DNA from: a virus
Taxonomy: Duplodnaviria > Heunggongvirae > Uroviricota > Caudoviricetes
Reading direction: 5' to 3' (one strand)
DNA length: 64,000 bases
Virus record (IMG/VR): IMGVR_UViG_3300042673_001280
The stretch's first letter is position 1; each line of letters begins with the position of its first letter. The notes under the pieces are model-generated. The model ran no database searches, had not been told where the DNA came from, and saw only the letters and a list, made by a program, of their open reading frames with translations. A program made the translations under genes and the position numbers. Below are positions 1 to 24,309 of the stretch, in pieces.

Positions 1-244
1 GCCTACCTACCAAAAAGGTTTGCCATTACAATACTTAGTATCAGTAATTGGACCTTTCATGATTCTTCCAAACGTAGGCTTAAACGAATGGGGTCATACA
101 TTCTGGTTTATGGAAGAATTATTCGTAGCCCCTCTACATTACGGATTTGTATTCTTTGGTTGGGCTGCATTAGGTGTATTAGGTGTAGTAAACATTGAAG
201 TACAAGCAATCTCCAAATTGCTAAAACAAGACTTATCTGCTTAA
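1..244 (+). CDS. 3' end of a hydrophobic (membrane) protein gene that begins upstream of the window. The ORF-track start at 20 is a TTG, and the frame stays open back to position 2.
   Basis: Frame is open from base 2. The product is hydrophobic and Trp/Phe/Gly-rich. Stop codon at 242-244. Confidence 0.4.
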   Translation, partial: PTYQKGLPLQYLVSVIGPFMILPNVGLNEWGHTFWFMEELFVAPLHYGFVFFGWAALGVLGVVNIEVQAISKLLKQDLSA

Positions 245-410: not shown

Positions 411-439
411 TTGACATTAATTGTTTATTGTTGTATAAT
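411..439 (+). promoter_or_regulatory. consensus sigma70 promoter (TTGACA-17-TATAAT) for the DNA ligase gene
   Basis: TTGACA at 411-416, 17-nt spacer, TATAAT at 434-439. AGGAG SD and ATG at 469 follow. Confidence 0.7.
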
Positions 440-468
440 AACATTTTTAATAATTACTAGGAGTACAC

Positions 469-1827
469 ATGATCACTACAATTTTACAAGAGTTAGCTAA
501 TGAACCAAAAACTAACAGCAAAATTGACATTCTTAAAAACAATAGCACTAATGAATTATTGAAAGATGTGTGCTTTTGTGCCACTAATAAATTACTTCCT
601 TTTAACATCAAAAAAATTCCTGATTATACTCCTAATACAGGAACACCTACAATGCTTCTTGACGAAGCAATTGTTCACTTACATGCATTAGCCGACCGTA
701 CTTATACAGGTCACGCAGGCATTGATCATCTTAAAAATATTTTAGAATCTGTAACAGAACGTGATGCACAAGTTGTTATCAAAGTTATAAATAAAGACTT
801 ACGTTGCGGTGTACAAGCATCTACAGTAAATAAAGTATGGAAAGGATTAATTCCAGAGTTTCCATATCAACGTTGCTCATTACCTAAACATGTTAAACTT
901 GATACTTGGCCATGGTCTAAAGGCGTGTATTCACAGTTAAAAGCAGATGGTATGTATATCAATGCTAACTTCTATGAAGACTTGTCTATTGAGTTATTAA
1001 GCAGAAGTGGTAACCCAATGCCATTAGAACCGTTTAAAAACATCATTGATTACATGCAACGTAAAATGCATTGTAATACACAAACACATGGTGAACTTGT
1101 TGTAAAGCGTGATGGTGTTATTTTGCCACGTGAAATAGGCAATGGTATCTTAAACAGTATAGCAGATGGCGGTTCGTTTTCTGAAAATGAAGAACCTTTA
1201 TTTTTAATATGGGATCAAATTCCATTATCAACTGCTGTACCAAAAGGTAAAGGCACTGTAGAATATGCTGATAGATACCATCCATTAAAAAATCAAGTTG
1301 CATCGCAAGCAGTAACTGATTATCAACATGTACAAATGATTGAAACAAAATTAGTGTTTTCATGGGAAGAAGCATTTAAACATTATCTTGAGTTAGTAGA
1401 ACAAGGACTTGAAGGTACTATTATTAAACGTCCAGATGCTAAATGGCGTGACGGTACAAGCAAAGATCAAGTTAAACTTAAACTTGAAGTAGATGTTGAT
1501 TTAGAAATTGTAGCATTTACAGAAGGTAATGGTAAGAATGCTGCATTGTTTGGATCTATTACATGTCAATCATCAGATAGCAAGTTAGTAGTTAACGTGT
1601 CAGGATTTACAGATGATTTACGTAAAGACATCTTTAATCGCAAAGATGAATTATATGGAACAATTGTAACAGTTAGATCCAACAACATTATGCCGCCAAC
1701 ATCAAGCAATCAATATTACAGTTTGTTTTTACCAAGATTTGTAGAATTCCGTAAAGACAAAACAGAAGCTGATTCATTAGAAAGAGTTCAGGATCAGTTT
1801 GATAGTGCAATGGGAAAGACTAAATGA
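469..1827 (+). CDS. ATP-dependent DNA ligase
   Basis: KxDG adenylation motif (LKADGMYINANF). Length and downstream OB-like region are typical of phage T4-type ligases. Confidence 0.85.
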   Translation: MITTILQELANEPKTNSKIDILKNNSTNELLKDVCFCATNKLLPFNIKKIPDYTPNTGTPTMLLDEAIVHLHALADRTYTGHAGIDHLKNILESVTERDAQVVIKVINKDLRCGVQASTVNKVWKGLIPEFPYQRCSLPKHVKLDTWPWSKGVYSQLKADGMYINANFYEDLSIELLSRSGNPMPLEPFKNIIDYMQRKMHCNTQTHGELVVKRDGVILPREIGNGILNSIADGGSFSENEEPLFLIWDQIPLSTAVPKGKGTVEYADRYHPLKNQVASQAVTDYQHVQMIETKLVFSWEEAFKHYLELVEQGLEGTIIKRPDAKWRDGTSKDQVKLKLEVDVDLEIVAFTEGNGKNAALFGSITCQSSDSKLVVNVSGFTDDLRKDIFNRKDELYGTIVTVRSNNIMPPTSSNQYYSLFLPRFVEFRKDKTEADSLERVQDQFDSAMGKTK

Positions 1828-2018
1828 CCACACAGTCATACGACGCAGTAACAGGAAACCAGTGTCCGCGTTGCGGCGCTGGGATGCTAATAATAGTATC
1901 TAGGGATATGTTTATATGCGTGGATTGCCACGTAGAGTTTATAAAAGAACCATACGTCCGACCTAAACCAGTTGGATGTGTTACACCAACCCTAACTAAA
2001 GACATTAAAAATGAATGA
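1824..2018 (+). CDS. small zinc-ribbon protein
   Basis: CPRCG ... CVDCH four-Cys motif. Its start overlaps the ligase stop. Confidence 0.5.
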   Translation: MTTQSYDAVTGNQCPRCGAGMLIIVSRDMFICVDCHVEFIKEPYVRPKPVGCVTPTLTKDIKNE

Positions 2019-3493: not shown

Positions 3494-4699
3494 ATGGCAC
3501 TTAAGAAAAAAACAAAAGTAACTTCAGTTACAATACGTGAAAATGCTAAAAAGGATAGCAGTCCTGTTTGGGACAACTGGGAAGATTGGACGCCTACTGA
3601 ATATAGAAAAAAATGGCATAACGCTATGCAATACTATAACCTGCAGTTTAGCGTAAAAGATTTAAAACCTGCAGTTGTTAAATGGATGACACTAAATGGC
3701 TGTAACACAGAATATATTAACACTTATAAAGCTACTAAAGATTGGCGCACAAGTACTACTATGGGTTCTATTGCTTCTTGTCTTATCAGAGGTATGCCAG
3801 CTGTTCATGACACTTTTAATAACGGAAGAGATGCGGCTGCTTGGTTAAGAGATGCCATTGCTGCTACAGTTGAAGCAGGTGAAGTAGACATTGAACCGGA
3901 TGAAGAAGGTGAAGTTAAAAAGCCAGCTGCAGTTATTAATATACAAGCTCGCGTAAAAGAAGCTGCAATTGGTATGACAGAAGTTATTGAAGACGCTGTA
4001 GACCAATGGATTACTAATGCAGCTACGTTTGATCCTAAAGCTATTAAAGTAATAAATGCGCTTAAAGCTAAGGAAGCAAAAGCAGCACATGCACGTATTA
4101 TTAAAGATATGTACTCGCGTAATTTGTTGGAATTAGAAGAGCTTGCAGCTGGCAAACCTGATGATGAAGAAAAGCACGATGCATACGAACAGTTACAAGA
4201 AGCTTATAAACATAGAAGTAAAAGAGAAATTAAAAATTTAATTGCATTTTATAAAGAAGTTGAATCTGCGTGTACTATGTTAATTGAAGAAAGTAAAGTT
4301 AACAAAGCACCACGTACTAAGAAAGCAGTACCAAAAGATAAGCTAGTTGAAAAATTAAAATATCTAAAAATATTTGAACCATTAAAACTTGTTTCTATTA
4401 ATCCTACAGATATTATTGGTGCTAAAGAGTTATGGGTATACAACACTAAGAATAGAAAACTTGGTAAATTTGTAGCTGATGAAATAACAGGACCGTTAAC
4501 TGTAAAAGGTGCTGCTATTTTAGGATATGATGAACATAAGAGTGTTCAAAAAACTATACGCAAGCCAGAAGAAACACTTAAAGAGTTTAAGTCTGCAAAT
4601 AAACTAATGTTACGAAAGTTTTTAGATGATATTAATTCAACCGATACTAAAATGTCCGGTCGAATTAATGAAGATACTATTTTATTAAAAATTGCTTAA
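3494..4699 (+). CDS. hypothetical protein
   Basis: Long ORF with a preceding GGAATAATATG start context. No recognisable motif. Confidence 0.4.
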   Translation: MALKKKTKVTSVTIRENAKKDSSPVWDNWEDWTPTEYRKKWHNAMQYYNLQFSVKDLKPAVVKWMTLNGCNTEYINTYKATKDWRTSTTMGSIASCLIRGMPAVHDTFNNGRDAAAWLRDAIAATVEAGEVDIEPDEEGEVKKPAAVINIQARVKEAAIGMTEVIEDAVDQWITNAATFDPKAIKVINALKAKEAKAAHARIIKDMYSRNLLELEELAAGKPDDEEKHDAYEQLQEAYKHRSKREIKNLIAFYKEVESACTMLIEESKVNKAPRTKKAVPKDKLVEKLKYLKIFEPLKLVSINPTDIIGAKELWVYNTKNRKLGKFVADEITGPLTVKGAAILGYDEHKSVQKTIRKPEETLKEFKSANKLMLRKFLDDINSTDTKMSGRINEDTILLKIA

Positions 4700-5604
4700 T
4701 CTATTGTAGTTTTTGCAGATTCAGCTAATTGAAGATTGATATAATCAACACCGGTATAATTAAAAAATTCTGTTAGCTGTTCTTCAGGAATACTTGATAA
4801 AAATGATAACCAATAGCTCATTGATCTATTTTGCAACTCATCAATACGATCTTGAGATATAACAGGGTCAACTCGTATCTTAGAAATGTAATTATGTGTG
4901 TCTCTTAAATGGTAAATGTGTACAGCAGTATGATGTAACAATTTATATCCATTTAAGAACGCATTTAATGTAGTATGATGTTCTTCACCAAACAAATACA
5001 TAAATGGGCATAACCCAACATGTCGAATAAAATCAGTGTGAGTAAAGAAATTTCCACCGTTTAAATGACGTGCTTTGACAACTTGTGTAGTTGGTTTTGG
5101 TCCAAACTTACCATGTGGTGTTGGCAATTTATTTGAATCAAATCCAAGATTTTTAAGAAATTTAACTGTAAGATACCCCATACCGTCTTCTTGTTCTTTA
5201 AACACATTACCGTTTTTATCAATTGTAAAAACTTTACATGCATTTGACAATGTAATTTTGTGAGTGTTATAAAACGTTGCTGCATTAAAAAACTCTTCAA
5301 GCAAATATTCATCCCAATTTTTATCAAATACTGAATGAGAATCAATTTGATAATAAAAATCTTCATCGTTTATATTTAAAGAATTAATATGCCTTGCCCA
5401 TCCAACACCGTTAGAATATTCTGGAGGCATTTGTTTATAAATTACAGATGGATGATCTTTATATTTACAATCAATAGTTGATTGATCAAATACTGAAATT
5501 GTTAGTTTATTATTGTTAGATTGCATTGATAATAATGATTCAATAGTAGTATCCAATAACGGATCTCTATACGACACTATACTTACAAAAATTGAACGAC
5601 TCAT
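4696..5604 (-). CDS. putative glycosyltransferase (GlcNAc-transferase-like family)
   Basis: N-terminal IFVSIVSYRDP motif resembles the signature start of the eukaryote/virus GlcNAc-transferase family. Recalled from memory, not searched. Confidence 0.4.
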   Translation of the reverse strand: MSRSIFVSIVSYRDPLLDTTIESLLSMQSNNNKLTISVFDQSTIDCKYKDHPSVIYKQMPPEYSNGVGWARHINSLNINDEDFYYQIDSHSVFDKNWDEYLLEEFFNAATFYNTHKITLSNACKVFTIDKNGNVFKEQEDGMGYLTVKFLKNLGFDSNKLPTPHGKFGPKPTTQVVKARHLNGGNFFTHTDFIRHVGLCPFMYLFGEEHHTTLNAFLNGYKLLHHTAVHIYHLRDTHNYISKIRVDPVISQDRIDELQNRSMSYWLSFLSSIPEEQLTEFFNYTGVDYINLQLAESAKTTID

Positions 5605-5611
5605 ATGTTAT

Positions 5612-5645
5612 CCTATAACGGTAAAGTATTATTTACCGTTATAGG
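5612..5645 (-). promoter_or_regulatory. perfect 14-bp inverted repeat (hairpin) that sequesters the SD of the glycosyltransferase gene
   Basis: cctataacggtaaa-gtatta-tttaccgttatagg. On the minus-strand mRNA the AGGA of the stem end is the only SD-like element, 7 nt before the AUG at 5604. Confidence 0.5.
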
Positions 5646-5685
5646 CGTTAACATACATTTAATCTAATAAGAAAACTGTAATAGG

Positions 5686-8600
5686 TTACTTAAGAAACGT
5701 AATAGATGCGCTCCCTGCAGTTCCGTAATATGCCGAAGTTGATTGACCTGTTCCGGATCCTCCTTTGCCACCAGTTCCTGGCGCATCAGTAGAAGTTGAT
5801 GAAACTACTGTAGAAGGTGCTGCAGTAATTGTTAACCCACCGGTATAATCTGAAGAAACAAACAATCCACCGGATACCCCAGCTCCAGCACTTGTAACGT
5901 TATCTTTACCTGCGATACCGCCTGTACCTGTAAACGTAGATTGGGTTGTTGTACAATAAGGTGCTCCACCGCCACCGCCACCTCCACCGTCAATTCCAGT
6001 AGCAGGCGTGTTGCCTGCTACGCCAACTGCTAAATCTGTAGATGCGCTAATATACGCAACACCTGGTAGGTTATATGGTGCCGCAGCTCCGCCAGTTTTT
6101 CCATTTGACCCGCCACCACCGCCACCGCCCCCGCCTGCAATTACAAGTTTACGCGATGTTGCACCGATCGTAGTAACTACAGTAGCGCCACCACCACCGC
6201 CGCCTCCGCCTGATGTACCAGTTGGCCCTGTGTTACCGCCGGTACCGCCTGCATATACACCGCCACCACCTGCACCGCCTCCACTAGCCTTTACTGCACC
6301 GTCTCCAGGTAAACCGCCCCCGCCAAGTGCTACACTTAACGATGTTGTTCCGGCTGGCAGACTATAAGTAGCGGTTATTCTAGGTGCACCTGCTCCTTTG
6401 TTACCGGCATTAGCATCAGAACCACCACCTGCACCGCCTCCGCCGCATGCAGCAATGATTACTTGAGTTGCATCCCACGGCACGGTTACTGATTGGGTTA
6501 CTGACGTTATTTGATTTGCAGAGACAACCGAAGCAGTTGATGCTAACAGACTAATAGCTGCTGATTCAACTTGACTCCATGATGCTACATTAGTTAAACC
6601 ACCGGTCGTTGCAGGACCTGTGCCTGGCATAAAATTAACTGCTAATACATAGTATGCAGTGTTTGGGCTTGTTAAACTAAGATACTGTTCAGTGTTTGTT
6701 AGGTAATAATCAGTTGAGAGCCATACTCCTATACCAGTTGTATCAGGTGGGGTAAATTTAGGAGAGCCATATGGACCTGTATTAGAAGGATTCCATGACT
6801 TATAGTAAAAATGTGTTGCACTTGTACACGTAGCAGTAAGTTTTACACCAAATGCGCCTGTTGCTGCAGTAACCGACACTTGACCAACTGCAGCTGGCGG
6901 TGTTGTATAATTAGCACTACTTGATAAAGTTGATGCTGCTGATGTTAACCCATTTGCAGTTCTCTTTGCAGTTGCAACAAAGTAATATTCGGTATTGTCA
7001 GCACCGAGCGTAACAGAAACTGCCTTTGGACTTGCATAAGTTCCTGCATCTGTGCCTGCAGATGTAGGCACAGATGTGCCATAACTATATAAAAATGCCG
7101 TAGCAGCTACTCCGCCTGATCCTGCTGTTATTGTTAATGTAACACTTCTGTCGCCTGCTTTTGCAGTTGACGTTAACGCAATAGTAGGCACTGCTGGCGC
7201 CGACGGGTATGTATATGCTGCAGTGCTTGCATCTGATGGTGCACCTACCCCGCCAAACGTTACGCCGTTGATTACTGTAGTATTGTCAGCTCTAACATAA
7301 TAGTAATACGGTGTTTCTGCAGTCAATGTTCCTGTATCAGCATACGACGTTCCGGATCCGGTTGTAGTAAGCCTGTTAGTAGAATCACTTAATCCTCCTC
7401 TATACACAGAATATGCTAAAGTTAATCCAGCTGGTGCAGTCCAATTAACTGTTAAACTTGTAGTCGATACTGAAGTTGTTGTACCTATTGTTACTTTAGG
7501 TGGTAACGTGATTGCAATCGTCGTTGCTGCAGTTGCACTATCACCACCACCATTGTTTGCAAATACAGCTACACCGTATTGTTTATTAGCAGAAAGACCG
7601 GTATTAACGCTTACTGATGTACTAGTTGGCGACGCTGTAAATACAGCAGTTGTAGTACCGTATTCTGTTACAGTTACTTTGTACGATGTAGCTGTTCCGG
7701 TTGTTGGTGCAGACCATGATGCAGTAAACGACGTAGTTGCTGCTAACGAAATAGTAATCATGCCCGGAGTTCCAGGTGGCTGATATGGAGTAGTAACTGA
7801 AACACTAACATCTGACATTGTACTCGAACCACCGTTATTAGCAGTTTTTACATAATACGTATACGCAGTGTTTTCTGTAACTGAACCTGATGCATTATCT
7901 ACAAATGTAACTGTACCTGTACCGCCGCTTGCAGCTAACGTAACATTGCCGGTTTTTATAATATCACCCGCTGCGGTACCGTTTCTATATATAGTATATG
8001 TCATTGGCGCATTGTAGTTAAACGTGGTTCCGTTGTGTGTTTCAACAGGTTGTGAAACATTACAACTAACGGTAATACTATTATATGTTACACTAGACGT
8101 AGTTGGAGTCGATGGTTTATTAGGTGCGTTTGCTAATGTAGCACCGGAAACTGATGTAGAAGCAGTACCATTTGGATTAGTGCTATATGCTGTTACTATA
8201 AAATTGAAAGTAGCATATGGATATAAGTTGTCAAACTTAAACGACGTAGCTGTCAAGTCGCCCGAAAAAACATAATAACCGTCAAATCCGTCACGACGTG
8301 CAATATATTTTACAACTGTTCCGCCCGATGCCGGTGCATCCCATGTTACTGTTATACTAGATGATGTAATACCAGTTGTTGCAACATTCCGAGGAGTACC
8401 TGGTACTAAATCCCAAGTAGTTACTGAATCACTAGCAGCTGATTCTATATCCGATTCACCACCTGTTGTAACTGAAGTAACGGTATATTGATACGCGGTT
8501 TTAACAGCTAATCCAGTATCTGAAAAACCTGATGTTTTAGTACCAAGTGGGGTTTTTCCAGGATACCTATATACTTTATAAGAATCTGCACCAGTTACTG

Positions 8601-11600
8601 CAACCCAAGATACTGTTATACTATCAGACGCAGTTACTGTAGCTGTTGGTTTAGCAGGTGCTAATACTTTATCTGCAAGAGTTGTAACTTTATTACTAAT
8701 TGGAGACTCTGCAGATGCACCTCCATTGTTGTTTGCAATTAACGTATACCAGTATTCTGTTTTAGCAACTACTGTATCAGTATATGGACTACTAGAAATT
8801 CCAGTTATTAAAGTACTTCCAGTTGATGTGTATCGTTTGAAATCATGCGATGTTGCACCTGCCTTCGTATTCCATGTTATTGTTAATGAAGTCTGTGCAG
8901 TAGCAGGTGATGTAACTATTGGAGCTGATGGTTGTGTTATCTTTGTTGTAAATGCTTTAGATGTACTAATACCAGTAATTGGACTAGCTTCATTATAAGT
9001 TGTAATAGTTACAGTATGCGCATTAGCTGAAGCTAACCCAGTAACATTAATTGATGTTGCAGTTGCAGATACGTTAGTGTTATCTAAATATGGCAGACCG
9101 TCAGTATCTTGTACAACTTTCACTCTATATTTTGTAACCTGTCCGGTTGCTTTTGTCCAGTTAATTGTTGCTCCAGTAGTTGTAATAGTTGCAAGAGGAA
9201 TAGTTATTCCAGTTACTACCGTTGGATCATCTGGTAAAGTTTGTACAGGGCTGCTATAGTCTGATGCAACTGACAGCCCGCCATCATTTACTGCAATTAA
9301 TGCATACTTGTAACTATCATAAGAAGTTAACCCTATACTAATATAGATTAATGTAGTAGTTCCAGAAGTAGTTACTCCGGTTAATGTTTCCGACGTACTA
9401 GTTGTAATATCGTACTTAATTAAATTATAACTCGTTGCACCTGTAATCGCACTCCATGAAACATTAAGTTTAGTTCTACCATCTGGCGGAGAAAGTGTAG
9501 TAACTGACGGACTTGATGGTTGTGTTATCTTTGTTGTAAATGCTTTAGATGTACTAATACCAGTAATTGGACTAGCTTCATTATAAGTTGTAATAGTTAC
9601 AGTATGCGCATTAGCTGAAGCTAACCCAGTAACATTAATTGATGTTGCAGTTGCAGATACGTTAGTGTTATCTAAATATATCTGACCGTTAGTATCTTGT
9701 ACAACTTTCACTCTATATTTTGTAACTTGACCAATTGCAGCTGTCCAGTTAATAGTTGCTCCAGTAGTTGTAATAGTTGCAAGAGGAATAGTTATTCCAG
9801 TTACTACCGTTGGATCATCTGGTAAAGTTTGTACAGAGCTGCTATAGTCTGATGCAACTGACAGCCCGCCATCATTTACTGCAATTAATGCATACTTGTA
9901 AATATCATAAGAAGTTAACCCTGTACTACTATAGGTTAATGTAGTAGTTCCAGAAGTAGTTACTCCGGTTAATGTTTCCGACGTACTAGTTGTATTATTG
10001 TACTTAATTAAATTATAACTCGTTGCACCTGTAATCGCACTCCATGAAACATTAAGTTTAGTTCTACCATCTGGCGGAGAAAGTGTAGTAACTGACGGAC
10101 TTGATGGTTTCTCTAACTTAGTTCTAAATGTTACATCTGATGTAGTTATAGAATTATTTTCATTAGTTGTTGTTACTGACACTGAATATAATCCATTTGC
10201 AGTTAACGTAGTAGTAAAAGGAGTTTGACCCATTGTTGCAGAAACTGACGTTCCGACATCTTTTGATTCTAATACTGTTCCACTTTGTTTAAGATTAACA
10301 GTATACTTTGTAACTTGACCAATTGCAGCTGTCCACGTTGCAGTTGCAGTAGACGATGTAATATTTGGCAATGTAACTGCTAAGTTAGTTACTACTGCTG
10401 CAGGTCCTGGCAATGTTCTTACAATATTACTAACCGGAGATGCAACTGACGACCCGCCTGCATTAACTGAAACTAATGTATATTTGTATTGATTATAACT
10501 TAGTAAATCAGTATCGAGATACGGTGATGTAACATTAGTTAGTGTTACTGATGCATTCCCTGGAGTAGTAACATCGTACCTAATTAAATTATAACTTGTA
10601 TGTCCGGTAACATTTTCAGTCCATGTAACAGTAAGTTGGTGTTGACCTAACGATGTATCAACTACACCTGTTACTACCGGAGCATTAACTGGAGCAGCTG
10701 TAGTTGTCCAAATATCTTCACTTGTTGATACAGGTAAATTATAGAATATAGATGATTCGTTTACTGTATACAATGTTGCTGTATATTTTGAAGTAGCAGC
10801 TAACCCTGTTGAAATTGTAATCGTATTAGTTGTATTTGTTACATCATTTTTTCTATATACTTCAGTAGTTGTTCCAAAATTTACTACTACAAGTTGATAA
10901 TAGTTAACTACTGGACTAGTTGACAATGTCCAATTAATAGTAAGGGTTGATACAGTTGAAGATGGTGTTGTAAACACTGCAGATATTGGAGCATCTGGTA
11001 ATGATCTTACAGAGTCACTTGTTGCCGACATCAGACTGTCTCCGCCTGTACTATGTCCTTTAACTGTATAGGTATGTGAGGTATACACACCAACAGTATC
11101 AACATATGGCATTGTAGAAACTGTAGCAGTCGGAGTACTTGCACCGTCTCTGTATATGTAATAAGTAGTTGCATAAGTTGATGCAGAATTTACACTTATT
11201 TGTGTAGAACTTTGTACTGTACCAACCGGTTTTGATGGAGTTAATGGTACATTTTCTAATGTTAATAAATCAACTGATGTAGTTTTAGTTGCTGACACAT
11301 TCTTAGCACTAACATCAACTCTATAGTTCTTAGTGTCTGAATGTACTGCTGATGCAATTAATCCTGTTATATTAGCCGATGATGCAGATTGCGCTAAGTT
11401 ACCAGAATCGTATACAACTGAACTATCAGATAACTTAGTTACTATTACCTGATAATTATCTACTTGACCGTCAATTACTAAACTTTGATAAGCCTTCCAC
11501 GTCACAGTTGCAGTAGTTTGCGTTATAGCTGATAGCACTACATTACTTGGCGGCATGATGTTAGATTTACCATGACCATTATGAAGTGATATAATAGTAC

Positions 11601-11730
11601 CACTTGTTCGAGAAACTTGAAATAAAATTCGAACATCGTCGTCATTTAACGAAATTGGTCCGGATGCTTTATTTAACTCTGTGCGAACTTGCCCCATTGA
11701 AATTGCATTGTATTCTAATGGCAATGTCAT
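5686..11730 (-). CDS. giant tail-fibre/adhesin protein (2014 aa): about 12 FN3/Ig-like repeats plus a C-terminal poly-glycine receptor-binding-like domain
   Basis: Recurrent ~95-aa modules with the LP.P ... V.W ... Y.Y pattern and extreme Thr/Ser content. Last ~280 aa contain G8-G10 runs separated by short variable segments. Confidence 0.7.
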   Translation of the reverse strand: MTLPLEYNAISMGQVRTELNKASGPISLNDDDVRILFQVSRTSGTIISLHNGHGKSNIMPPSNVVLSAITQTTATVTWKAYQSLVIDGQVDNYQVIVTKLSDSSVVYDSGNLAQSASSANITGLIASAVHSDTKNYRVDVSAKNVSATKTTSVDLLTLENVPLTPSKPVGTVQSSTQISVNSASTYATTYYIYRDGASTPTATVSTMPYVDTVGVYTSHTYTVKGHSTGGDSLMSATSDSVRSLPDAPISAVFTTPSSTVSTLTINWTLSTSPVVNYYQLVVVNFGTTTEVYRKNDVTNTTNTITISTGLAATSKYTATLYTVNESSIFYNLPVSTSEDIWTTTAAPVNAPVVTGVVDTSLGQHQLTVTWTENVTGHTSYNLIRYDVTTPGNASVTLTNVTSPYLDTDLLSYNQYKYTLVSVNAGGSSVASPVSNIVRTLPGPAAVVTNLAVTLPNITSSTATATWTAAIGQVTKYTVNLKQSGTVLESKDVGTSVSATMGQTPFTTTLTANGLYSVSVTTTNENNSITTSDVTFRTKLEKPSSPSVTTLSPPDGRTKLNVSWSAITGATSYNLIKYNNTTSTSETLTGVTTSGTTTLTYSSTGLTSYDIYKYALIAVNDGGLSVASDYSSSVQTLPDDPTVVTGITIPLATITTTGATINWTAAIGQVTKYRVKVVQDTNGQIYLDNTNVSATATSINVTGLASANAHTVTITTYNEASPITGISTSKAFTTKITQPSSPSVTTLSPPDGRTKLNVSWSAITGATSYNLIKYDITTSTSETLTGVTTSGTTTLIYISIGLTSYDSYKYALIAVNDGGLSVASDYSSPVQTLPDDPTVVTGITIPLATITTTGATINWTKATGQVTKYRVKVVQDTDGLPYLDNTNVSATATSINVTGLASANAHTVTITTYNEASPITGISTSKAFTTKITQPSAPIVTSPATAQTSLTITWNTKAGATSHDFKRYTSTGSTLITGISSSPYTDTVVAKTEYWYTLIANNNGGASAESPISNKVTTLADKVLAPAKPTATVTASDSITVSWVAVTGADSYKVYRYPGKTPLGTKTSGFSDTGLAVKTAYQYTVTSVTTGGESDIESAASDSVTTWDLVPGTPRNVATTGITSSSITVTWDAPASGGTVVKYIARRDGFDGYYVFSGDLTATSFKFDNLYPYATFNFIVTAYSTNPNGTASTSVSGATLANAPNKPSTPTTSSVTYNSITVSCNVSQPVETHNGTTFNYNAPMTYTIYRNGTAAGDIIKTGNVTLAASGGTGTVTFVDNASGSVTENTAYTYYVKTANNGGSSTMSDVSVSVTTPYQPPGTPGMITISLAATTSFTASWSAPTTGTATSYKVTVTEYGTTTAVFTASPTSTSVSVNTGLSANKQYGVAVFANNGGGDSATAATTIAITLPPKVTIGTTTSVSTTSLTVNWTAPAGLTLAYSVYRGGLSDSTNRLTTTGSGTSYADTGTLTAETPYYYYVRADNTTVINGVTFGGVGAPSDASTAAYTYPSAPAVPTIALTSTAKAGDRSVTLTITAGSGGVAATAFLYSYGTSVPTSAGTDAGTYASPKAVSVTLGADNTEYYFVATAKRTANGLTSAASTLSSSANYTTPPAAVGQVSVTAATGAFGVKLTATCTSATHFYYKSWNPSNTGPYGSPKFTPPDTTGIGVWLSTDYYLTNTEQYLSLTSPNTAYYVLAVNFMPGTGPATTGGLTNVASWSQVESAAISLLASTASVVSANQITSVTQSVTVPWDATQVIIAACGGGGAGGGSDANAGNKGAGAPRITATYSLPAGTTSLSVALGGGGLPGDGAVKASGGGAGGGGVYAGGTGGNTGPTGTSGGGGGGGGATVVTTIGATSRKLVIAGGGGGGGGGSNGKTGGAAAPYNLPGVAYISASTDLAVGVAGNTPATGIDGGGGGGGGAPYCTTTQSTFTGTGGIAGKDNVTSAGAGVSGGLFVSSDYTGGLTITAAPSTVVSSTSTDAPGTGGKGGSGTGQSTSAYYGTAGSASITFLK
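8928..10105 (-). repeat. two ~590-bp tandem copies (about 95 % identical) inside the fibre gene, each encoding a pair of FN3-like modules
   Basis: Long identical strings (e.g. ggttgtgttatctttgttgtaaatgctttagatgtactaataccagtaattggactagcttcattataagttgtaatagttacagtatgcgcattagctgaagctaa) occur at ~8930 and ~9517. The protein repeats KITQPSSPSVTTLSPPDGRTKLNVSWSAITGATSYNLIKY. Confidence 0.8.
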
Positions 11731-12359
11731 TATTTAATTCCTTTTAACTCGTCTATTTGAACTTGTTGTGCTTTAATACATTCAATTAACAATGGAATTA
11801 ATTTCTGATAATCAACAGCTAAAATGCCATTATCTCTTTCATGTACTGCTTCTGGTAGTACTTCAATTACTTCTTGAGCAATTACACCTACGTCATATTC
11901 TTTAAATAAAGATTGATTTTGAGTTGCATAATAATCTGCAGTCCATTTAAATGTATTGCCTGAAAGTGTTAGTAATTTCTCAAGTGGGTTAGCAATAGGA
12001 GTAATATTTTCTTTTAATCTTTTATCCGAACTATTGTAAGCAGTAATATTCTGCAACGCAGTAAGATCATGTTTACAATTTACTACACTACCAGCAGCTG
12101 TCGACCCAATGTTAACTATAGTTGCAGCTCCACCAATATTAAGAGTAGTTGCAGTAGTATTAATTAGATCAAAGCTTCCAACAACTGATGCAGATATAGA
12201 ATCTGTAAAAAGAGGAGCAGTTGCAAAAACTAACTTCCCAGTACCAGTAGTATCAACTGCACCGACATCAGCTAAATTAATGTAATCTAAATATGCTAAT
12301 CGACCTAAATCAGCATTAGTTGGTACTTGATGTGGTCTATTTCCTATAAAACTACTCAT
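11730..12359 (-). CDS. short fibre protein carrying a C-terminal intramolecular-chaperone (peptidase S74-like) domain
   Basis: C-terminal SDKRLKENI ... GVIAQEV ... VDYQKLIPLLIECIKAQQ matches the auto-processing chaperone of endosialidase/T5 pb1-type fibres. N-terminal Gly/Thr/Ala beta-rich stalk. Confidence 0.6.
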   Translation of the reverse strand: MSSFIGNRPHQVPTNADLGRLAYLDYINLADVGAVDTTGTGKLVFATAPLFTDSISASVVGSFDLINTTATTLNIGGAATIVNIGSTAAGSVVNCKHDLTALQNITAYNSSDKRLKENITPIANPLEKLLTLSGNTFKWTADYYATQNQSLFKEYDVGVIAQEVIEVLPEAVHERDNGILAVDYQKLIPLLIECIKAQQVQIDELKGIK

Positions 12360-12414
12360 TGTTGCAACCCTTTTAACGTTTTAGTTTTGTATGTTTGTTT
12401 CATTATTTATTCCC

Positions 12415-15400
12415 TTATTGCATTGTAAGTACTAACAATTCATTACCGCTTAATTGTTTTGCGTAATATGTAAATTTTGTAATGTATTGTGTACCGACTC
12501 CATTACCAAATTTTAACATATTAACATCAATTGGAGCTGCAAAATTGCTATCATCAACAGCCGCTGGCTGATTATTAAACGTATATGTTGCAGGAGATGT
12601 TGCAGGATTTAAACCATAACTAACTGCATGAGTTACAATTGTGTTTAACGTTGACGTTGTATAACCAGCAAAATCAAACTGAACAGTTGAGGTGTTAGTT
12701 TTACAAACCGAATTATATACAATGCTTCCGCTAGCCGAATTACATCCAACTTCAATGTACGATGTTACTGCAGGTGAAGTTTGAATTCTAGCACCGCCGT
12801 AATCAGCAAATCCGTCATTAATACCTAACGCAGTATGTGATAACACCATAGTACCTTGTGTCTTGCTATACCAACTAGAAAAATTAGTTCCAGTTACATT
12901 AACATCTTCTACAGTTCGAAGCACTGGTGCTTCGAGCGTAGGAATATAACTTGTCATATATTTACCATCTTCAAGTTGCGCTCCCCATAATACAACAGTA
13001 GTATCAGTAGATGCAAACTGTAAACTTATTTTATTTGTAGGTGGAGATTCAGTAAAGCTAAGTCGAACTAGCGATGAAATATCATATGTTGATTCATCTA
13101 TTACTGTCCAATTCATACTAGTTGAGAATTTATAACTTATTGCGCCAACTCCTGTAACTCGTTTAATCCATATTGAGAATGTTTTAAACCCACTACCCGT
13201 TGTCGAATCGTTAAACACTAATTCTGCATTAGCAGCATTGGCAGTAAATTGATATGCAAACCCTATACCATACGGAGTTAAAGTATTTGATGTTGCGCGT
13301 GTCATTAACGGATATGTCCATGACGAGAACGATTCAGATCTTGTTAAATAATTTGTTCTTGCTTCTTCAAGTAACAACCCTTTTGACTCTCTAGTAATTG
13401 GATCGTGATCAAACCTTGCGCAATTTGGATCAGCAACAACTAATAAACCGGTTGAATTATAATATGTTGCAATACTTGTTCTGCTAAACGTAATACGAGG
13501 ATCAAGTGTTTTACTATTAGCAAAATCAAACATAACTGATGGACGTATTGTTGGTCTTGTTGCAGTTGCAGTAATCCCTGTTGCAGACATTATTGAACTA
13601 CCTAATGTTAAGTCAATTCGGCTGTTTGTTGATAGTGCCCATTTTCCAGTTATAGTACCTTCAATAGTTGCATCACCAGTTGATAATGTTTTAGATTTTA
13701 ATACACTAGTAGCTGCAGTAACATCTAACGTACCTGTAATTGCTACATTAGTAGATGATGCCGCGCCACCCGATGCAACTATAAAATCAACGTTGCCAGG
13801 TGTAGTAAATTTAACTTGTCTGTTTGGATTAGTATCGTCAACATTATATGTATCAATGATAGTATAACCATCAACTTTTAAACCTTTAACATTAATAACA
13901 CCGTTAGTATCTGTCTGAACAATACTAGATGCTCCGCCAACTTGTGTATACGGAACTACTTCATATGCAGTTGCCTTACTGCTAACTACTGTTTTAACTG
14001 TCATTACACCAACTGATGTAAATGTTGCATTTTTAATACCGTCGCCATCAAGTACAATGTCACCTGTTGAAACTTCAGTAACTGCACCGGTTGCATTAGT
14101 ATAGTTACCTAACATTTTCTTAGCAGCAACATGTTTTATTTTAGAAATATCAATACCGTTAGCAGATGTTCCGGTTTCTAAATCAATCCACCCATTAGTA
14201 GATTTAAACACTGCACTATTATACGTTGATACACCTAAATCAGATTGCAGATTAGTTGATGCAGCTCTTGCCACTGCTTTAACTAAGTTTAACTTGCTTT
14301 GATCTATTTCAGCAGTTAAACTAACCATACTGTTAACAATTTTAGCAGCCCCAATAGTTGAAGTTAATGTAGCAGTAGAACCAACTACTACATACGCAAT
14401 AGTTACATCGCCAGTTAATGTTGAGTTAATCCATTTATTTGGTCCAAGTAACCCAGTGTTTCTTTGTACTAGTAATTGAGCATCAACTAATGTAGCAGAT
14501 GTTATTGATACATCTCCTAATTCTGATATTGCATTGTTACTAGCAATTAATCTATCAACATACCCTTTAGTTGCAGCATCTTTTGATTCAATATCAGGTT
14601 CTAAACTTGGTGTTTTAAGATTAGTAATTGCATTGTTACCCATTGATAAATCGCCAGACATAACAAGCGATCCGTTTAATGGTAAAAACCCTGGTCCAAT
14701 CCATGTAGAGAATGGAACTGCAGAACCACCGTGGTCTAAACCTAATCGTTTGTCAATATATCCACGTACTGCACTTTGTACTGGTACCGTGTCAGCAGCG
14801 TTGTTAGTTAATGAAGAGTCTGATGAAAATTCATTTACTACAACACCTCGACTAAATCCAAAACCTTCAATATTTGATAATGAAATCTTAGCACTAAATG
14901 TTACTGTTCCTGTACCTTGATCTACTGAGAAAAACCGCCCTACTCTAAATATACCGTCTTGGTTGGTTGAAACATAGAAACAACGACCTACGCCTTCGTC
15001 CAACGTCTCGCGTGATGCATTACGAGGTAAAGCAGGATCACCGTAAATTGAATATGGAATATTTGTTGTACTATATCCGCCTGTTCCAATATCGCAGAAA
15101 TCATGCCCAGTTGCACGACATGTACTAATACGTGTTGTTACTTGTGCAAGTGAATTAGATTGGTGTCCAATTTTTAATGTATACGACGAACTACGACTAA
15201 AAGGTTTACTAATACCTAAATTAGAACTAGTTCCAGATGCTAATGTATCTGTTATTAGCGTAGGATCTACTATATCAAAAACACCCGGATTATATGGATA
15301 AAATACAGTAGCACTTGTAGCTGTTGCAGATATTACACGAACAAATCCATTATATAATGCGTTAATGTTTCCTTCAACTTTAAGCCATGAATTGTCTGCT

Positions 15401-18400
15401 AGTGTTGTAGCTCTTGCATTAAATTGGAAAGTTACTGAATATCCGGTTGCGTTAGTTGACGAAGTTGGTAACGGAGATGTAAGTACTGTAGATGTAGTAC
15501 CTAAAATTTCAGCTCCCGGATTAACAGATTCTACAGGATCAGTTGGGTATAACACAGTTATTCTATTAACAGATACTCCTTCAGATGCAGTTGTATCTAC
15601 ATACACCGGAGTAGATAATTCAACTGATAAATCAGCAGGTGTTATAGGTTGAAGTTCATCTGGAAGATGTAAATTTAAATCCGGAATATTAATATATCCA
15701 GAACCACGATAAACAATTTTAATTTCAACAATTTTAGTATCAACAATCTTACATACTGCTTTTGCTTGTTTTGTATATCCTCCGCCATCGATTGTAATTG
15801 TCGTACCATCAGGATATCCAAGACCGCCATTTACAACAGTTATTGTTTTAACATTTGCCGCAGTTGATGCTCTAATTTGAGATCCTGCAGGAACCCAACA
15901 TGACGGACTAACTGTAATAGTATGATTTGGAATATCAACTTCTTGAATAATTGCACCAACGCCACTAATTGATTCTACTGCCGAGGTCACAACCATGCCA
16001 ACCTTAAATCCATTAGTTGAACTAATTGTTAACGTAGTTTGATCTAATACACCAACAACTTGATAAGAACCGTTATAGTCACTTAATGCGTTATCGTTAA
16101 CTGCAATATTAAGATAACCGTCAACTTTTGGTAACACATTATCTTTATTATACGGAACATCAAACGTTACGACTGTAGCAACTACGCTGCCGTCTTGCAA
16201 TGCCTTACTATGATACGACATTGCAGGTAATGTATAGTCGTCGGCACTATTATTTGTTATTGGAACACTTGAAATTTCAATATATCCGTTACGTGTAGAT
16301 CCAAATGTAACTGAGTAATTATTAATTGCAGTACCGACTGTATCTCTAACTGTTACAACTGCAATAGCCGGGTCTTCGCTATTAATTACTACATTATCAA
16401 CATACCCAGTAAGTGTGATAGTAGTTCCATTTTTTACTACAAAATAATCAGAAATATTAATTGTGCCTACAGTACCACTAACTGTTAGTATATTACCAAC
16501 ATAGCTAGTACATGTTCTACTAACTGCAGCAGTTGGTTGTACATATTGCAAAATTTGATGTATTCTACCATTCCATGCTGTAATATAGGTTTGTTTGTTA
16601 AGTTGATCTATTACTGCAATTTGTGTAATTGGAATTACTGCAAGTTTAGTATCACTTACTTTATACCCTTGGGTTGCATTTGTAAACGAAACTTCGCCTG
16701 ATGGTGTTACCGACGGTGCTGCCTCTAATGATGGTTCAACTGTTGTTAACACAATCTCAAATTTACCAGCATCTACACCTGTTTTTGCAACTACAGATTG
16801 GACTATTTGTCCAGCAAACCCAATACCAACAATTGTTTGACCTACTGCAATGGTAGTACCAGCTGCAACGTTATTAACGACAATCGTCGTACTTGATGTA
16901 CTACCTGATACAACAGTTGCAGTAATAGTGTTAGACGGATCGCCGTTGATGATATTAGTAGGATCGATCATAATATTGTAATATGCAAATGAATTATCAC
17001 TTTGTAAAATTGCAATATTTGGATCTAATAGCTCACCGGTTGATTCTGCTAAATTATAAGCAACGATACGATATACATCATTTAAGTTATCGTTATATTG
17101 CAATGCAGTAGACGGTCTAGTTGGTTTAACGTTATCAATGTTATTAAACTTAACATTTTTTAATACACGAATTGATACTACTTGTCCATCATACAACGCT
17201 TTTGCTAATCCTGAACTTGCAGTGTTATTATCGCCTGATGTACTTAAATTAAGTTTAATTACAATTATGTTGTTTACCCGAACAGTAGTATACTCAACTG
17301 ATGTAATAATATAGTTAGTAATAATACCACCGTTTGCACTATGGTCAATTTCTAATCCCGACCCGGTAGTTGGAATATACTCATACGCATGTACCCATAC
17401 TGCAACTGCAGGAGTAGTAGCAGTAGGCACCATCTCGTTAATAGTTTCACCTTGTTTATAAACTTTTGCAGTTTGCAACATATGATTTGCTAAGTTTGCA
17501 CTATCTGGTAATTCAGTAACATCAAACCCTGAAGCACGCATACCATAGTTACCAAATGTGTTTGAACACCCGACACCACGTAAATTACTACCGTTATTTG
17601 CCCAGAACCCGGTATGTGCATAATATGTAAATGTACACACTTGTTCAGTAAATGCACCGTTAGATGCTACTATACCATAACCTAAATCGTTAAACATTGC
17701 AAAGTCATTTGCTAACATTGAACGATTACCACCGGTTTCTAAATTAATTGTTAAATCTGCACCGTTGTTTAAAAAATCAGTTACTTGTTTAGCAATCCCA
17801 GTAGGACCTGTAATATCTAACCCAGTGTATGCAGTTGTATTAACATTACTTGGCAACGTAGGCCATTCTACTGTAGGTAAGGTTGATGCTACATTTGGAT
17901 TTGAATTTACATAATCAATTACTATATTAACTAGCGTAGTAAGGGTTAAATCAAATGTACTATCAGCAGCTAATGTTTGAATTTGATTTTCTTTATTGCC
18001 ACGGGTTGGAGTTACTTCAACACCTTTAACAATTGATGTTAAAATATTACGTAATCTTATGTATGCTGTTTGACATACTGATTGCACATCTCCATCTAAC
18101 AATACTGATTCATATAAATTTGAATTGTTTTTAGAAAATAACGACGTAGCATAATCAACTGTTTGGCTGTTACCGCCATAGAAAATATCATATGTAATTG
18201 CATCAACTAAATAGCCAACATCACGTTCACTCTTTTGTCTATTATAGTTAGGCAACGTGCTTAACACATAATTATCTGAAATATACGCAGTTATTTCAGC
18301 TTTAATAAACGGTTTATTAATTTGAAGAATATCACGAGCTTTATTTTCATTTAGTGTTTTAGATGCCCAAACAAAGTCTAATGTAGCACTTACACCGTTA

Positions 18401-21400
18401 ACTAACATACTTGTTATAAGTGTACTTGATAAAGTTAACCCGGGAATTTCAGCATTTGCTAATTCGATCGATTTCTCAATTCCTGCTTTAGTTAACCCTT
18501 GAAGCTCTCCAATTAACAAACTAGAAGATAGTCTTAAGAATGCTCTACCTGCATGTATTGCACGATAATTAGTACCTAATATCGCATCAGTAACTACTGC
18601 ATCAATTACATACCCTGCATCGCGTCGTGCCTTTACTTCATCGTACACTAAATTGTTTGATATTGGATTATACATATACGGCGTTGTAGTATCTAACGTT
18701 AACGTTACTGTTTGAGTAGCAGCATTAAATTCAACAATGTCGTCAATTTGATAACGCTTTCCTCTAACATAAAACGAACATGGCGGTTGTGGAGGTCTAA
18801 CATCAAGTCCGCTGCTTTGACCAAACACAATTTTACCAGACGGCGTACTATCTGCAACTGCACTTAATACCACTGTAGCATTAGTCGATGGCGCAACTGG
18901 TAACGTTACACTTACAACATATTGTCTACTTTCAAATCCAGTACCTGTAATTTTAACACCTGGTTTTAATCCAACAATGTTAACGATATTATTAACAACC
19001 ATAGTAGTTGATAATCGTCCGCCACTTACATATGTACCAACTGCACTAGTTGTACCTTGTACTTTAATTGTAAGACCTAAGTCAGTAATCTCTTTAATAG
19101 TGCCGTATACGCGACCTGCAAATCCGTCAATATATTGTCCACCTGCAAATCGTTTATAGTTGTTACTTTGTGAAAAACTAGAACATTCTTGAATGTACGG
19201 TGATTTAGTTTTAATGTTACCTTCTGGATCTAGAACCATTGCAAAGCCGCCTTGACCTTGGAACGTTACACCAATAATACGATTACCTTCATTACATAAG
19301 AATACGTCAATTTCTTTATTATTTTTAGCAGGACTTGTTACATCTAATGGATTAGTTAAATAATGACGTCCGTAGTTAATAGTGTCAAACAAGAACCAGT
19401 TGCCGGCTAGTTTAGTAAATGCAGTTTCAAACGGATAAATTACCGTACAGTTCATTGTGTTACCACTAACTGAATCAATAACTGCTTTTCCTCTTTTCTT
19501 ATTGCCACCAGCAGGTATAACATTATCAGTAAACACTTTACCTACCCAACTTAATAATGCTTGGTAATTATTACTTAACGTGATAATAATTTTACCACTA
19601 ACACCGTCAAGCGTAGCAGTAATACCTAAAGAGACTAACGGTGCCGAATTTGAAGCATAATCAATAAGACCTACTTCTAACGCATCAATAATTGCATCGC
19701 GATAGAAAAATACTCTACGCCACGGGCTTTGACTTTCTCTATCGATTGGACGAATAAGTGTTCTACGCATCTCGTCACCGCGAACTGAAACGTTTGCTGG
19801 AATTTTTAACGGAAAGTCTTCGTAATATATTCCGCTTTCTATAAATACTGAAAGATTTAAATCTCGTACTGTTTCACCAAATTCCAATTCTTCGCCTACT
19901 TTAAAGAAACCGGGTTTAGTTAATCGAACTTGTATTCTGTCTTTACCTGTTGATATTTCAGGTGTGTATTTTACAATGCTAGCATACGCCCCTGATGCAG
20001 TTAAATTAGTTGACACCCGGCCAACTCCGACAATTATCTTAGCAGGAAAAATATCATTGCTTTTTGGAGCACCTTGGTCAACATAACCCTTACCGCCGTT
20101 GTCAATATCAATATTCCAAATTGCAGTACCGTGCGACGGCGTGGCTGCAAAACTAACACCGTAACGGATTATGTCTAATACACTATCTAAACTATCAGTA
20201 AATATTGCAGTAGCTTCATCTGAAATTTCAGACAGATAGCTGCCAACTACTCCAATGCTACTTGATGGTAGTATTGCAGTTGATGAAAACGCAGTAAGCT
20301 GAGTTTCAGCTTGTTGGTATCGAACTGCTGTGTAACCTGTTAATACCTCTATACCTAAGTTTTTTGCAAATGCAATACCGTCAAAAGATTGAACATAATG
20401 TGTGCCAATTGCAACTGATTTCGCGCTTGAGTTTTTGTAAAAACTTTTACCTGCAGTTATTGATTGCCAGTTTCCACCGGTAATAATATCTATTGCGGCT
20501 GCATCAACTATTAGTCCAATATCGCGATAACATAACGATTCATCATAATTAAATCCACCGCCAAACGCAGTATTAACATAATCAATAGAGGTATTTTCAA
20601 TTACTTCGGCATTATTATTAATAATAACCTTTAAACTAATTGCATCAATGTATGTTCCACCAGTAAATATAGTGTCATCAACTGGGATACCCATATATAA
20701 GTCATTATCAATTGCAGTAGCTGCAGCTGTAAATTTTGTACCAATAAGGGTTGACGTTGCATTAGTATCATCGTCGTCGCTATGTCCGTTAACGATAGTT
20801 CTAGCGTATAACGAAGTTTTACTAATAACAGTTTTTGTAATAGCCGGCGTGCTAACTATTGTCATTTGATGTGCAGCTGCAACCGATGCTGCTGTCCCGC
20901 CGTACGTAATATCATAACATACTGAAATAATTAGTTTCCTTAAATCAACTGCTAATATAGCTAAAACATCTACGTCAGTGATACTTTCATCAATATCTAA
21001 ATATGAGTTAACATCATTAATAATACTAGTAATAGCAGCATTATCTAAACGATTACGTGCGTTACGAATCCAGCCATTTGGTAGCGGTTGTGTAGTGCCG
21101 CCAGTTACATATGAATTTACTTCAACATTAATATCTGGATATCTTGGTAACTCTGTCGGAAGTTCACCTGACTTAATTATTGTGTCAATTTCAACAAACA
21201 ACGCGTTAATTCTTTCTAAATAATTAGGATCGTTAATTACTGGGTAGAAGTGATCCATATACCATGATGCTGTAGTAGTAACATCTGAATTTGTGCCAAC
21301 AGTGTATATAGATTTATCTAATTCTAATGCTGTAAAAAATGTTATTAAATCAGGTGTCCCAGCAGCAGAATTTGGCAACTGGATAGCCGGAGTAGTATTA

Positions 21401-23922: not shown

Positions 23923-24002
23923 ATTAAGTTACACCCCTTATGTGAACATGTTGTTTTACGATATTTATCAAAAAAATTTTATAATCTTAATGTAAATACA
24001 AT

Positions 24003-24290: not shown

Positions 24291-24293
24291 ATA
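24286..24293 (+). promoter_or_regulatory. T4-type late promoter octamer TATAAATA
   Basis: Exact TATAAATA 16 nt upstream of the ATG at 24310, followed by a GGAG SD. Confidence 0.5.
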
Positions 24294-24309
24294 TGAAAAA
24301 GGAGATATT

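Follow-up and report, generated by a model that had tools for sequence, protein, structure and literature searches.

What can an intramolecular chaperone domain be for when it is attached to little more than a hundred residues? The question is raised by a short gene, here called the mini-fibre gene, in a stretch of viral DNA of 64,000 nt (IMG/VR record IMGVR_UViG_3300042673_001280; this whole stretch is referred to as the window, and its numbering is used throughout). The gene stands in a cluster of fibre genes described here on the minus strand, between genes for proteins of 3835 aa and 2014 aa. Domains of the S74 family, also known as intramolecular chaperone (IMC) domains, trimerise, fold the adjoining N-terminal beta-structure and then cut themselves off at a conserved Ser (PMC3742443). 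We hold with good confidence that the mini-fibre is a cis-acting, self-cleaving short fibre protein. We also lean, by a small degree, towards the whole statement that it is a minimal self-processing trimeric fibre stub carrying the 2014-aa protein as an adhesin. The carrying, judged on our analysis as a separate point, is a tentative proposal that we place somewhat short of even chances.

Identity of the mini-fibre gene

The mini-fibre gene is real. A stand-alone reading frame of 209 aa was found on the minus strand at exactly the coordinates given in the initial annotation, with the peptides quoted there present in its translation. A homologue of 209 aa that is 97% identical (P0001) was observed on other metagenome contigs with the gene order conserved (contigs and proteins used for comparison carry our labels L and P). 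The gene, its parts and its borders are as follows.

11730..12359, minus strand: mini-fibre gene, 209 aa, 22.5 kDa, ATG start, stop codon included (open reading frame list and translation)
12261..12359, minus strand: N-terminal motif MSSFIGxKPxQVPTNxDLGRLAxLDY, residues 1-33, putative attachment anchor (conserved in alleles of 209-1501 aa)
12030..12260, minus strand: Thr/Ala-rich stalk, residues 34-110, ending ...NITAYNS (one 'DTTGTGKLVF' unit and one 'FDLINTTATTLNIGGAATIVNIGS' fibre repeat)
11733..12029, minus strand: S74 intramolecular chaperone domain, residues 111-209, 99 aa, 11.2 kDa (Pfam PF13884, PDB sequence matches, AF2)
12012..12029, minus strand: predicted autocleavage site S111-D-K-R114-L-K116, cut expected between S110 and S111 (conservation in homologues)
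11990..12100, minus strand: recombination breakpoint at the stalk/chaperone junction, approximate (nucleotide identity between the window and L005)
11728..11732, minus strand: TAATG, the mini-fibre stop codon overlapping the ATG of the 2014-aa gene (sequence)
12360..12414, minus strand: spacer of 55 nt from the giant gene to the mini-fibre gene, with AAAAGGG 9 nt 5' of the ATG (sequence)

Because the mini-fibre gene and the upstream gene for the 3835-aa giant are in different reading frames, the mini-fibre is not a read-through tail of that giant. The open frame extends just 7 codons 5' of the conserved Met before a stop, and with the difference in frame and the relatives of identical layout this excluded a tail produced by read-through or frameshift. 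BLASTP of the mini-fibre against both giants and the glycosyltransferase encoded nearby gave no significant match, which ruled out a detached piece of either giant, and within the window the N-terminal motif and the S74 domain were each found once only. The overlap with the 2014-aa gene had been described as lying at the start of the mini-fibre gene; on the minus strand, where these genes lie, it falls at the stop codon instead. A promoter and terminator scan of 4500-24400 gave counts equal to those of shuffled sequence and was uninformative, with no terminator-like site flanking the mini-fibre gene. The placement between two giant fibre genes is right as to the flanking genes of 3835 aa and 2014 aa, while the 2014-aa product is an FN3 array with a poly-Gly end and not a classical trimeric fibre.

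The C-terminal chaperone domain

The C-terminus of the mini-fibre is a bona fide S74, or intramolecular chaperone, domain. The initial annotation had made this assignment and had named a profile search as its test. That search matched Pfam PF13884 (Peptidase_S74) over residues 111-173 and the complete profile (1-58 of 58) with an E-value of 6.8e-16 and 58.8 bits (gathering cutoff 22). A total of 39 PHROG families (tail fibre, long-tail-fibre distal subunit, baseplate wedge) matched the mini-fibre via their C-termini. In a comparison of the homologue profile with PDB sequences, the top match was S16 gp37 over the IMC (6f45_A, E 2.2e-10), and a putative tail fibre (8jov) and the MYRF ICA (7dc3) were also matched.

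An AF2 model built with an alignment of 17 sequences had a mean pLDDT of 50. An alignment of 121 sequences rescued the chaperone domain (IMCD) only, and residues 121-209 were then modelled at a pLDDT of ~87-94 as a helix-rich fold with a long C-terminal helix. Foldseek matches of this model in the PDB at E <0.1 were the MYRF ICA (7dc3), endosialidase (3gw6) and GA-1 (3gud), with no others, and TM-scores were low (0.26-0.40) because a monomer model was compared with intertwined trimers.

In the S74/IMC family a Ser/Lys dyad is spaced five residues apart, and the C-terminal fragment begins at the Ser (PMC3742443). Across 121 homologues of the mini-fibre, S111 and D112 were invariant, and R114 and K116 were conserved in at least 90%. 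The part from the Ser onward (99 aa) equals the median of 105 homologues; the domain lies at the extreme C-terminus, and the 50 residues preceding it match a fibre repeat. The strict conservation of the cleavage dyad implies that an N-terminal product is released. In Pfam family, Ser-Lys spacing and fold the mini-fibre resembles the K1F endosialidase (3GW6), GA-1 gp12 (3GUD), T5 pb1 and the MYRF ICA (7DC3). The domains of those proteins end large enzymes, spikes, fibres or a transcription factor, whereas the cargo of the mini-fibre is just 110 residues. In the matches to cultured phages that were inspected, the matching part was likewise the end of a long fibre.

The domain and its chemistry are already known, and metagenomes contain many short S74 proteins. 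Among 105 close homologues with the motif, 43 had an N-terminal part of at most 130 aa, although some of these may be truncated gene calls.

An allele of a variable fibre locus

The N-terminal part had been described as a Gly/Thr/Ala-rich stalk of ~120 aa. Its richness in Thr (17%) and Ala (14%) was borne out; its length is 110 aa (11.2 kDa), and Gly makes up just 9%. Residues ~60-105 matched a ~45-residue repeat that occurs in up to 27 copies in proteins of 600-2800 aa (search of 1.8 billion representatives), and PHROG tail-fibre families aligned to the mini-fibre from residue ~54. In the clade relatives whose contexts were looked up, a hypervariable gene with a product of 209-1501 aa lies directly after the gene for a giant of 3835-4385 aa. 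The alleles observed were the following.

209 aa: window, L005, L006 and L013
325-363 aa: close homologues (L001, 363 aa)
487 aa: L007
675 aa: L010
1501 aa: L012

The N-terminal motif is common to proteins of 323-1501 aa, whose C-termini are S74 in some cases and unrelated distal domains in others. We regard residues 1-33 as a probable attachment anchor; in the AF2 model the motif formed just a short helix at residues 15-26, at low confidence. The motif may also be a general fibre junction motif and not an N-terminal anchor only. A related sequence (NQVPTNxDLGxLAY) was observed inside the 2121-aa repeat fibre P0121 at residues ~1336-1360, as NQIPLNQYLGSMAFQ, and the N-terminal motif was observed twice in the 126-aa protein P0235.

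Every allele other than the 209-aa one carries, after the motif, a domain of ~115 aa (VPTI...NGGQITLIP...KWYPSY). Alignment with the 325-363-aa alleles left a clean internal gap in the 209-aa protein between residues 34 and 35, and because the domain is missing at this gap the 209-aa form is a deletion derivative.

The locus is also mosaic. Between the window and L005, the relative that encodes the 97%-identical protein, the 10 kb upstream through mini-fibre codon 83 were 99-100% identical in nucleotide sequence, while past this codon the chaperone domain was 84% identical and the first part of the 2014-aa gene 63-89%. This drop places a recombination joint at the stalk/chaperone boundary. All codon changes between the two lie from codon 84 onward, in the last stalk codons and the chaperone domain, and 37 are synonymous against 7 non-synonymous, which indicates purifying selection. 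Among more distant relatives the chaperone domain was the best-conserved DNA of the locus (80%, against ~70% or unalignable sequence elsewhere), a conservation that fits its use as a site of homologous recombination. The novelty of the mini-fibre gene is that so minimal a form exists as one allele of a variable fibre locus and has a recombination joint inside it.

These data bear on one reading in which the gene has no function as a fibre, namely that the deletion inactivated the original fibre and that the frame persists as a decaying remnant, either because the event is recent or for the sake of translational coupling to the 2014-aa gene. The loss of the ~115-aa domain found in all other alleles would suit a remnant, and the first 83 codons, being identical in the window and L005, are uninformative on selection. 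Different samples have nevertheless yielded at least three sequence variants (window; P0001/L005/L006; L013) in which the 209-aa frame is intact, even after replacement of the 3' half by recombination. All catalytic and core residues are kept, and short S74 genes of similar size precede genes of the adhesin family described below in unrelated phages (L038, L042). We consider a remnant very improbable.

Pairing of S74 genes with an adhesin family

The 2014-aa protein begins with a small domain, here called ISL, that has three I-S-(L/M) pseudo-repeats. The features of this protein and of the giant on the other side of the mini-fibre are listed below.

5686..11730, minus strand: 2014-aa gene, with ISL domain, at least seven FN3 domains and poly-Gly C-terminal region (Pfam fn3 E 8.9e-57, 7 stretches)
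11557..11730, minus strand: ISL domain, residues 1-58 of the 2014-aa protein (ISM 10-12, ISL 26-28, ISL 47-49, then GKS; alignment-invariant)
5689-6468, minus strand: poly-Gly region, residues ~1755-2014 of the 2014-aa protein (G8-G10 runs)
12415..23922, minus strand: 3835-aa giant fibre gene (PHROG matches)
23800-23922, minus strand: N-terminal 41 aa of the giant, tail-fibre/baseplate connector motif (phrog_677 E 3.3e-12)
12424-13548, minus strand: C-terminal ~375 aa of the giant, conserved 'tail protein' domain (phrog_5939 E 1.5e-52, residues 3333-3833)

The ISL domain of the 2014-aa protein matched phrog_26817 with an E-value of 4.4e-6. The consensus of the family is MALPSSGxISLSQVNVELG..ISLND..VR.LFG..ISMSD.GKS (phrog_26817/26746), for which PHROGs gives the function as unknown. 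PDB matches of the 2014-aa protein were to FN3 domains of titin and a receptor phosphatase, and a PDB sequence search with the 3835-aa protein gave no match.

We confirmed the ISL domain at 372 IMG/VR loci. Family statistics were taken from 63 unique proteins from the best 80 of these loci, and adjacency was counted at 58 unique loci. The 63 proteins had a median length of 318 aa, and 48 of the 59 complete ones contained runs of at least five glycines. Their distal parts vary and include Gly_rich_2 (Pfam E 1e-19), gp38-like, FN3 with lectin-like (Lcl_C) and propeller-like types. An S74-terminated frame ended within 40 nt of the ISL gene start in 27 of the 58 loci, and a further 10 had such a frame within 3 kb upstream; none was found downstream of an ISL gene on the same strand. 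The upstream S74 proteins ranged from short ones to long frames of at least 998 aa, a length limited by the 3-kb flank. Short S74 genes directly 5' of Gly-rich ISL genes were observed in unrelated contigs as well, with products of 262 aa (L038) and 224 aa (L042).

Within the clade, S74-terminated genes were followed in each relative examined by an ISL gene whose start either overlaps the S74 stop codon or lies no more than 4 nt from it, for S74 proteins of 189, 209, 357-363, 675 and 684 aa. This adjacency was established by coordinates or sequence for the window, L003-L007, L010/11 and L013-L017, and for L001/2 by identity of the S74 gene with that of L003/4. In L012 the allele has no S74 domain, and the ISL gene is missing too. 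In L007 the 487-aa gene with the N-terminal motif is separate, and the gene next to the ISL gene is an S74 gene of 189 aa that has no such motif. The interval between the 487-aa gene and the ISL/FN3 gene of L007 (9410..10570) holds tandem short S74 genes (193 and 189 aa), both without the N-terminal motif and with mature parts of just ~63 and ~90 aa.

The unrelated 31-kb viral contig L038 adds the third neighbour. A protein of 459 aa encoded there two genes upstream of the short S74 gene (509..1888) is homologous over its full length to the C-terminal ~375 aa of the giant (29%, E 3e-35). This homology, taken with the adjacency, suggests that the window holds an expanded copy of a three-part module of tail-protein domain, S74 fibre and ISL adhesin. 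The pairing of S74 and ISL genes was undescribed in the literature we searched, in a search that was not exhaustive, and the recurrent pairing of S74 with an adhesin family that uses an uncharacterised attachment domain is the second new element of this work.

Stand-alone proteins of 62 aa that consist of the ISL domain alone were observed in two contigs. The 62-aa gene of L020 (1755..1943) overlaps a gene for a fibre of at least 588 aa at the S74-encoding end of the latter, and in L018 (5001..5189) a 469-aa S74 fibre is encoded two genes before the 62-aa protein. Such proteins could be caps or competitors for a docking site.

The initial annotation had suggested that the mini-fibre is a short whisker-like fibre. 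The suggestion fits the fibre-repeat N-terminal part and the motif held in common with the 323-1501-aa alleles. Taken as a whisker with no link to the 2014-aa protein, it becomes a rival to our proposal: a 110-aa trimer would have a weak binding or spacing role of its own, and the adjacency would reflect operon organisation only. The mini-fibre does have the anchor-stalk-IMCD architecture of all S74 fibres, and the longer alleles bring their own distal domains, some without S74. A 77-residue stalk with no distal domain, however, has nothing obvious to bind with. The tight junction with the ISL gene (a stop/start overlap of 1 nt, or a gap of at most 4 nt) is kept across alleles of 189-684 aa, and the count in IMG/VR was 37 S74 genes upstream of ISL genes and 0 downstream. 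An independent whisker thus seems unlikely to us.

A proposed docking platform and its comparison with gp37-gp38

We propose that the S74 domain (residues 111-209) would bring three chains together and would fold, in cis, the Thr/Ala-rich beta-stalk of ~77 residues directly N-terminal to itself. Cleavage at Ser111/Lys116 would remove the chaperone domain and leave a trimer of the 110-residue (11.2 kDa) N-terminal fragment. The stub would attach by its 33-residue N-terminal motif, and the upstream 3835-aa giant is its likely partner because the C-terminal domain of the giant travels with the module in other phages. At the distal tip so exposed, the stub would dock the ISM/ISL/ISL domain of the FN3/poly-Gly protein of 2014 aa, which is translationally coupled to it, and the three pseudo-repeats of that domain would make three contacts on the stub trimer. 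The allele in the window is a deletion derivative of longer alleles, and the conserved chaperone-domain DNA would be the recombination joint. From the sequence comparisons we infer that the protein trimerises, is cleaved, is present in the virion and takes part in both docking interactions.

The proposal that the stub carries the 2014-aa protein is based on the gene adjacency statistics and on an analogy with phage S16. The trimeric gp37 tip of S16 is bound at its base by one gp38 adhesin, which makes three equivalent contacts and attaches by three Trp-tipped helices (PMC6851490). As in S16/T2 (6F45), an S74-ended trimer gene is followed by the adhesin gene in the window, and the best PDB sequence match of the mini-fibre is S16 gp37 itself. 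The 2014-aa protein resembles gp38 in having a small domain at its N-terminus and poly-Gly at its C-terminus, and smaller members of the ISL family match 6f45_D; the sole PDB match of the ISL protein of L043 was S16 gp38 (6f45_D, E 0.0043), and the ISL protein of L025 scored 17.5 bits against Pfam GP38, under the cutoff of 25. A monomer docks on a trimer in S16 (PMC6851490), and the same is proposed for the window. The systems differ in that the carrier here would be 110 aa after predicted processing, compared with the end of a long (>700-aa) gp37, in that the proposed adhesin has 2014 aa and an FN3 array, and in that the phage is a jumbo phage of the pmoC type, not a T-even phage.

Several observations weigh against this proposal. 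The ISL domain has no conserved Trp and has the three I-S-(L/M) pseudo-repeats in place of the Trp-tipped helices of S16 gp38. Sequence comparison did not establish that the 2014-aa protein is homologous to gp38: Pfam GP38 (PF05268) gave no match in this protein, and its C-terminus gave no meaningful PDB or Pfam match and no match to 6f45_D. Against a local Gly-rich ISL model, the same C-terminus scored above all 300 shuffles (z ~4), yet the score was negative. An hhalign comparison of the ISL alignment with the GP38-annotated protein of L021 returned a probability of 13.5%. The adjacency within the clade may reflect shared ancestry alone, and about half of the ISL genes elsewhere have no preceding S74 gene, a point that also counts for an independent whisker. 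The AF2 monomer model of residues 1-110 had low confidence (pLDDT 47-79). If the missing ~115-aa domain is the true attachment domain, the stub may not be bound to the virion. The synonymous excess in the IMCD, finally, may predate the recombination and stem from longer alleles.

Precomputed GP38 labels were used as leads only. Those of P0271 and of the L009 protein (13104..14105) were not reproduced by hmmscan at E-values up to 10, and BLASTP of the N- and C-termini of the 2014-aa protein against the GP38-annotated 333-aa protein of L009 returned nothing. The L021 protein that bears such a label (434..1486) had S16 gp38 as its sole PDB match, at a sub-threshold E-value of 0.34. A search of NCBIfam gave nothing useful.

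A trans-acting chaperone as an alternative

The other suggestion of the initial annotation was a trans-acting trimerisation chaperone for the neighbouring giants. In the form weighed here, the S74 trimer would help to fold or assemble the 2014-aa adhesin or the upstream giant, before or after self-cleavage, and would then be discarded like Tfa-type chaperones. Pam3 gp25 offers a precedent, as a stand-alone chaperone that resembles intramolecular chaperones in overall architecture and has a glycine-rich fibre as its client (PMC9608196). The mini-fibre is likewise a small stand-alone protein beside a glycine-rich receptor-binding protein, as are Pam3 gp25 and Mu Tfa, and it is translationally coupled to the poly-Gly protein. 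Neither the 3835-aa nor the 2014-aa giant has an S74 domain of its own by Pfam, and the tandem S74 proteins of L007, with no motif and very small mature parts, would also be compatible with action in trans.

We found this suggestion unsupported for the mini-fibre. Unlike Tfa-type chaperones, it has a conserved self-cleavage site, and the conserved Ser, Lys and Arg would be pointless if the N-terminal product were irrelevant. Its N-terminal part consists of a fibre repeat and a motif common to long fibre alleles, and it has neither similarity to the giants nor a Pfam or PHROG match to Tfa or gp38-chaperone families. The downstream neighbour is an FN3 protein of beads-on-a-string type. ISL genes also follow long S74 fibres (416 to at least 998 aa, several of which run off the 3-kb flank), and since they follow long fibres just as frequently as short ones the association is with fibre tips. 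The mini-fibre gene, moreover, lies upstream of its putative client, whereas the trans-acting chaperones known to us are encoded downstream of theirs. The mini-fibre nevertheless appears linked in function to the 2014-aa protein, in our proposal as a docking stalk and not as a folding chaperone. As with the independent whisker, we regard a chaperone acting in trans as unlikely.

Neighbouring genes and phage context

The same-strand cluster ends in a gene for a glycosyltransferase, which may act on the fibres. This gene is absent at the corresponding position in the relative L001, where the FN3 gene is directly followed by a convergent gene for a 401-aa protein. Two further genes of the window, on the plus strand, were observed away from the cluster.

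4696..5604, minus strand: 302-aa GlcNAc-type glycosyltransferase, last gene of the same-strand cluster (PF11397 E 4.9e-27)
32444..34084, plus strand: Nol-like carbamoyltransferase (phrog_1601 E 2e-98)
40370..42670, plus strand: 766-aa Clp/ATP-dependent protease-like protein (phrog_4871 E 1e-245)

Sinorhizobium phage Phosso and Agrobacterium phage Atu_ph07, with genomes of 470-490 kb, have DNA polymerases that are 45-49% identical to the one encoded in the window, and the syntenic metagenome contigs were 355-372 kb. At the edge of the window (2..244, plus strand) we observed the last 80 residues of a PmoC/AmoC-family protein, 78 of which were identical to an AmoC-annotated gene product of L012; on this 368-kb contig the gene adjoins a ligase gene. 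A gene fragment at the edge of the 355-kb contig L001 also bears an AmoC Pfam label. From the polymerase, the syntenic contigs and the PmoC fragment, the window can be assigned to a freshwater jumbo phage of the type described as pmoC-phages (PMC7674155). A megablast search of 4000-25000 against 50,697 phage records returned a single match of 44 nt, which indicates that there is no close cultured relative among these records. The literature searched on 'moraphages' and pmoC-phages held nothing on these fibre genes.

Significance of the S74-ISL module

Taken alone, the mini-fibre is unremarkable as a member of a familiar domain family, though it is unusually small. The wider value lies in a recurring three-part host-recognition module, which is found in small phages and, greatly expanded, in a jumbo phage associated with methanotrophs. 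A broader generalisation, which we offer more speculatively than the pairing in the window, is that short S74 stubs could be general docking platforms for a large and undescribed family of monomeric adhesins. These would attach via a domain of ~55 residues with three pseudo-repeats, one for each subunit of the trimer, as a Trp-free counterpart of the gp38 attachment domain, and a joint in the chaperone-domain DNA would let carrier and adhesin be swapped independently. If so, the tip-adhesin principle of gp37-gp38 would hold not only in T-even phages but also in hundreds of aquatic phages, one of them a jumbo phage with an adhesin of 2014 aa. If the pairing is true, the receptor-binding proteins of uncultured aquatic phages could be located by a simple rule, the requirements of an intramolecular chaperone for folding could be studied in a minimal system of 110 residues, and fibre swaps could be engineered at a defined joint.

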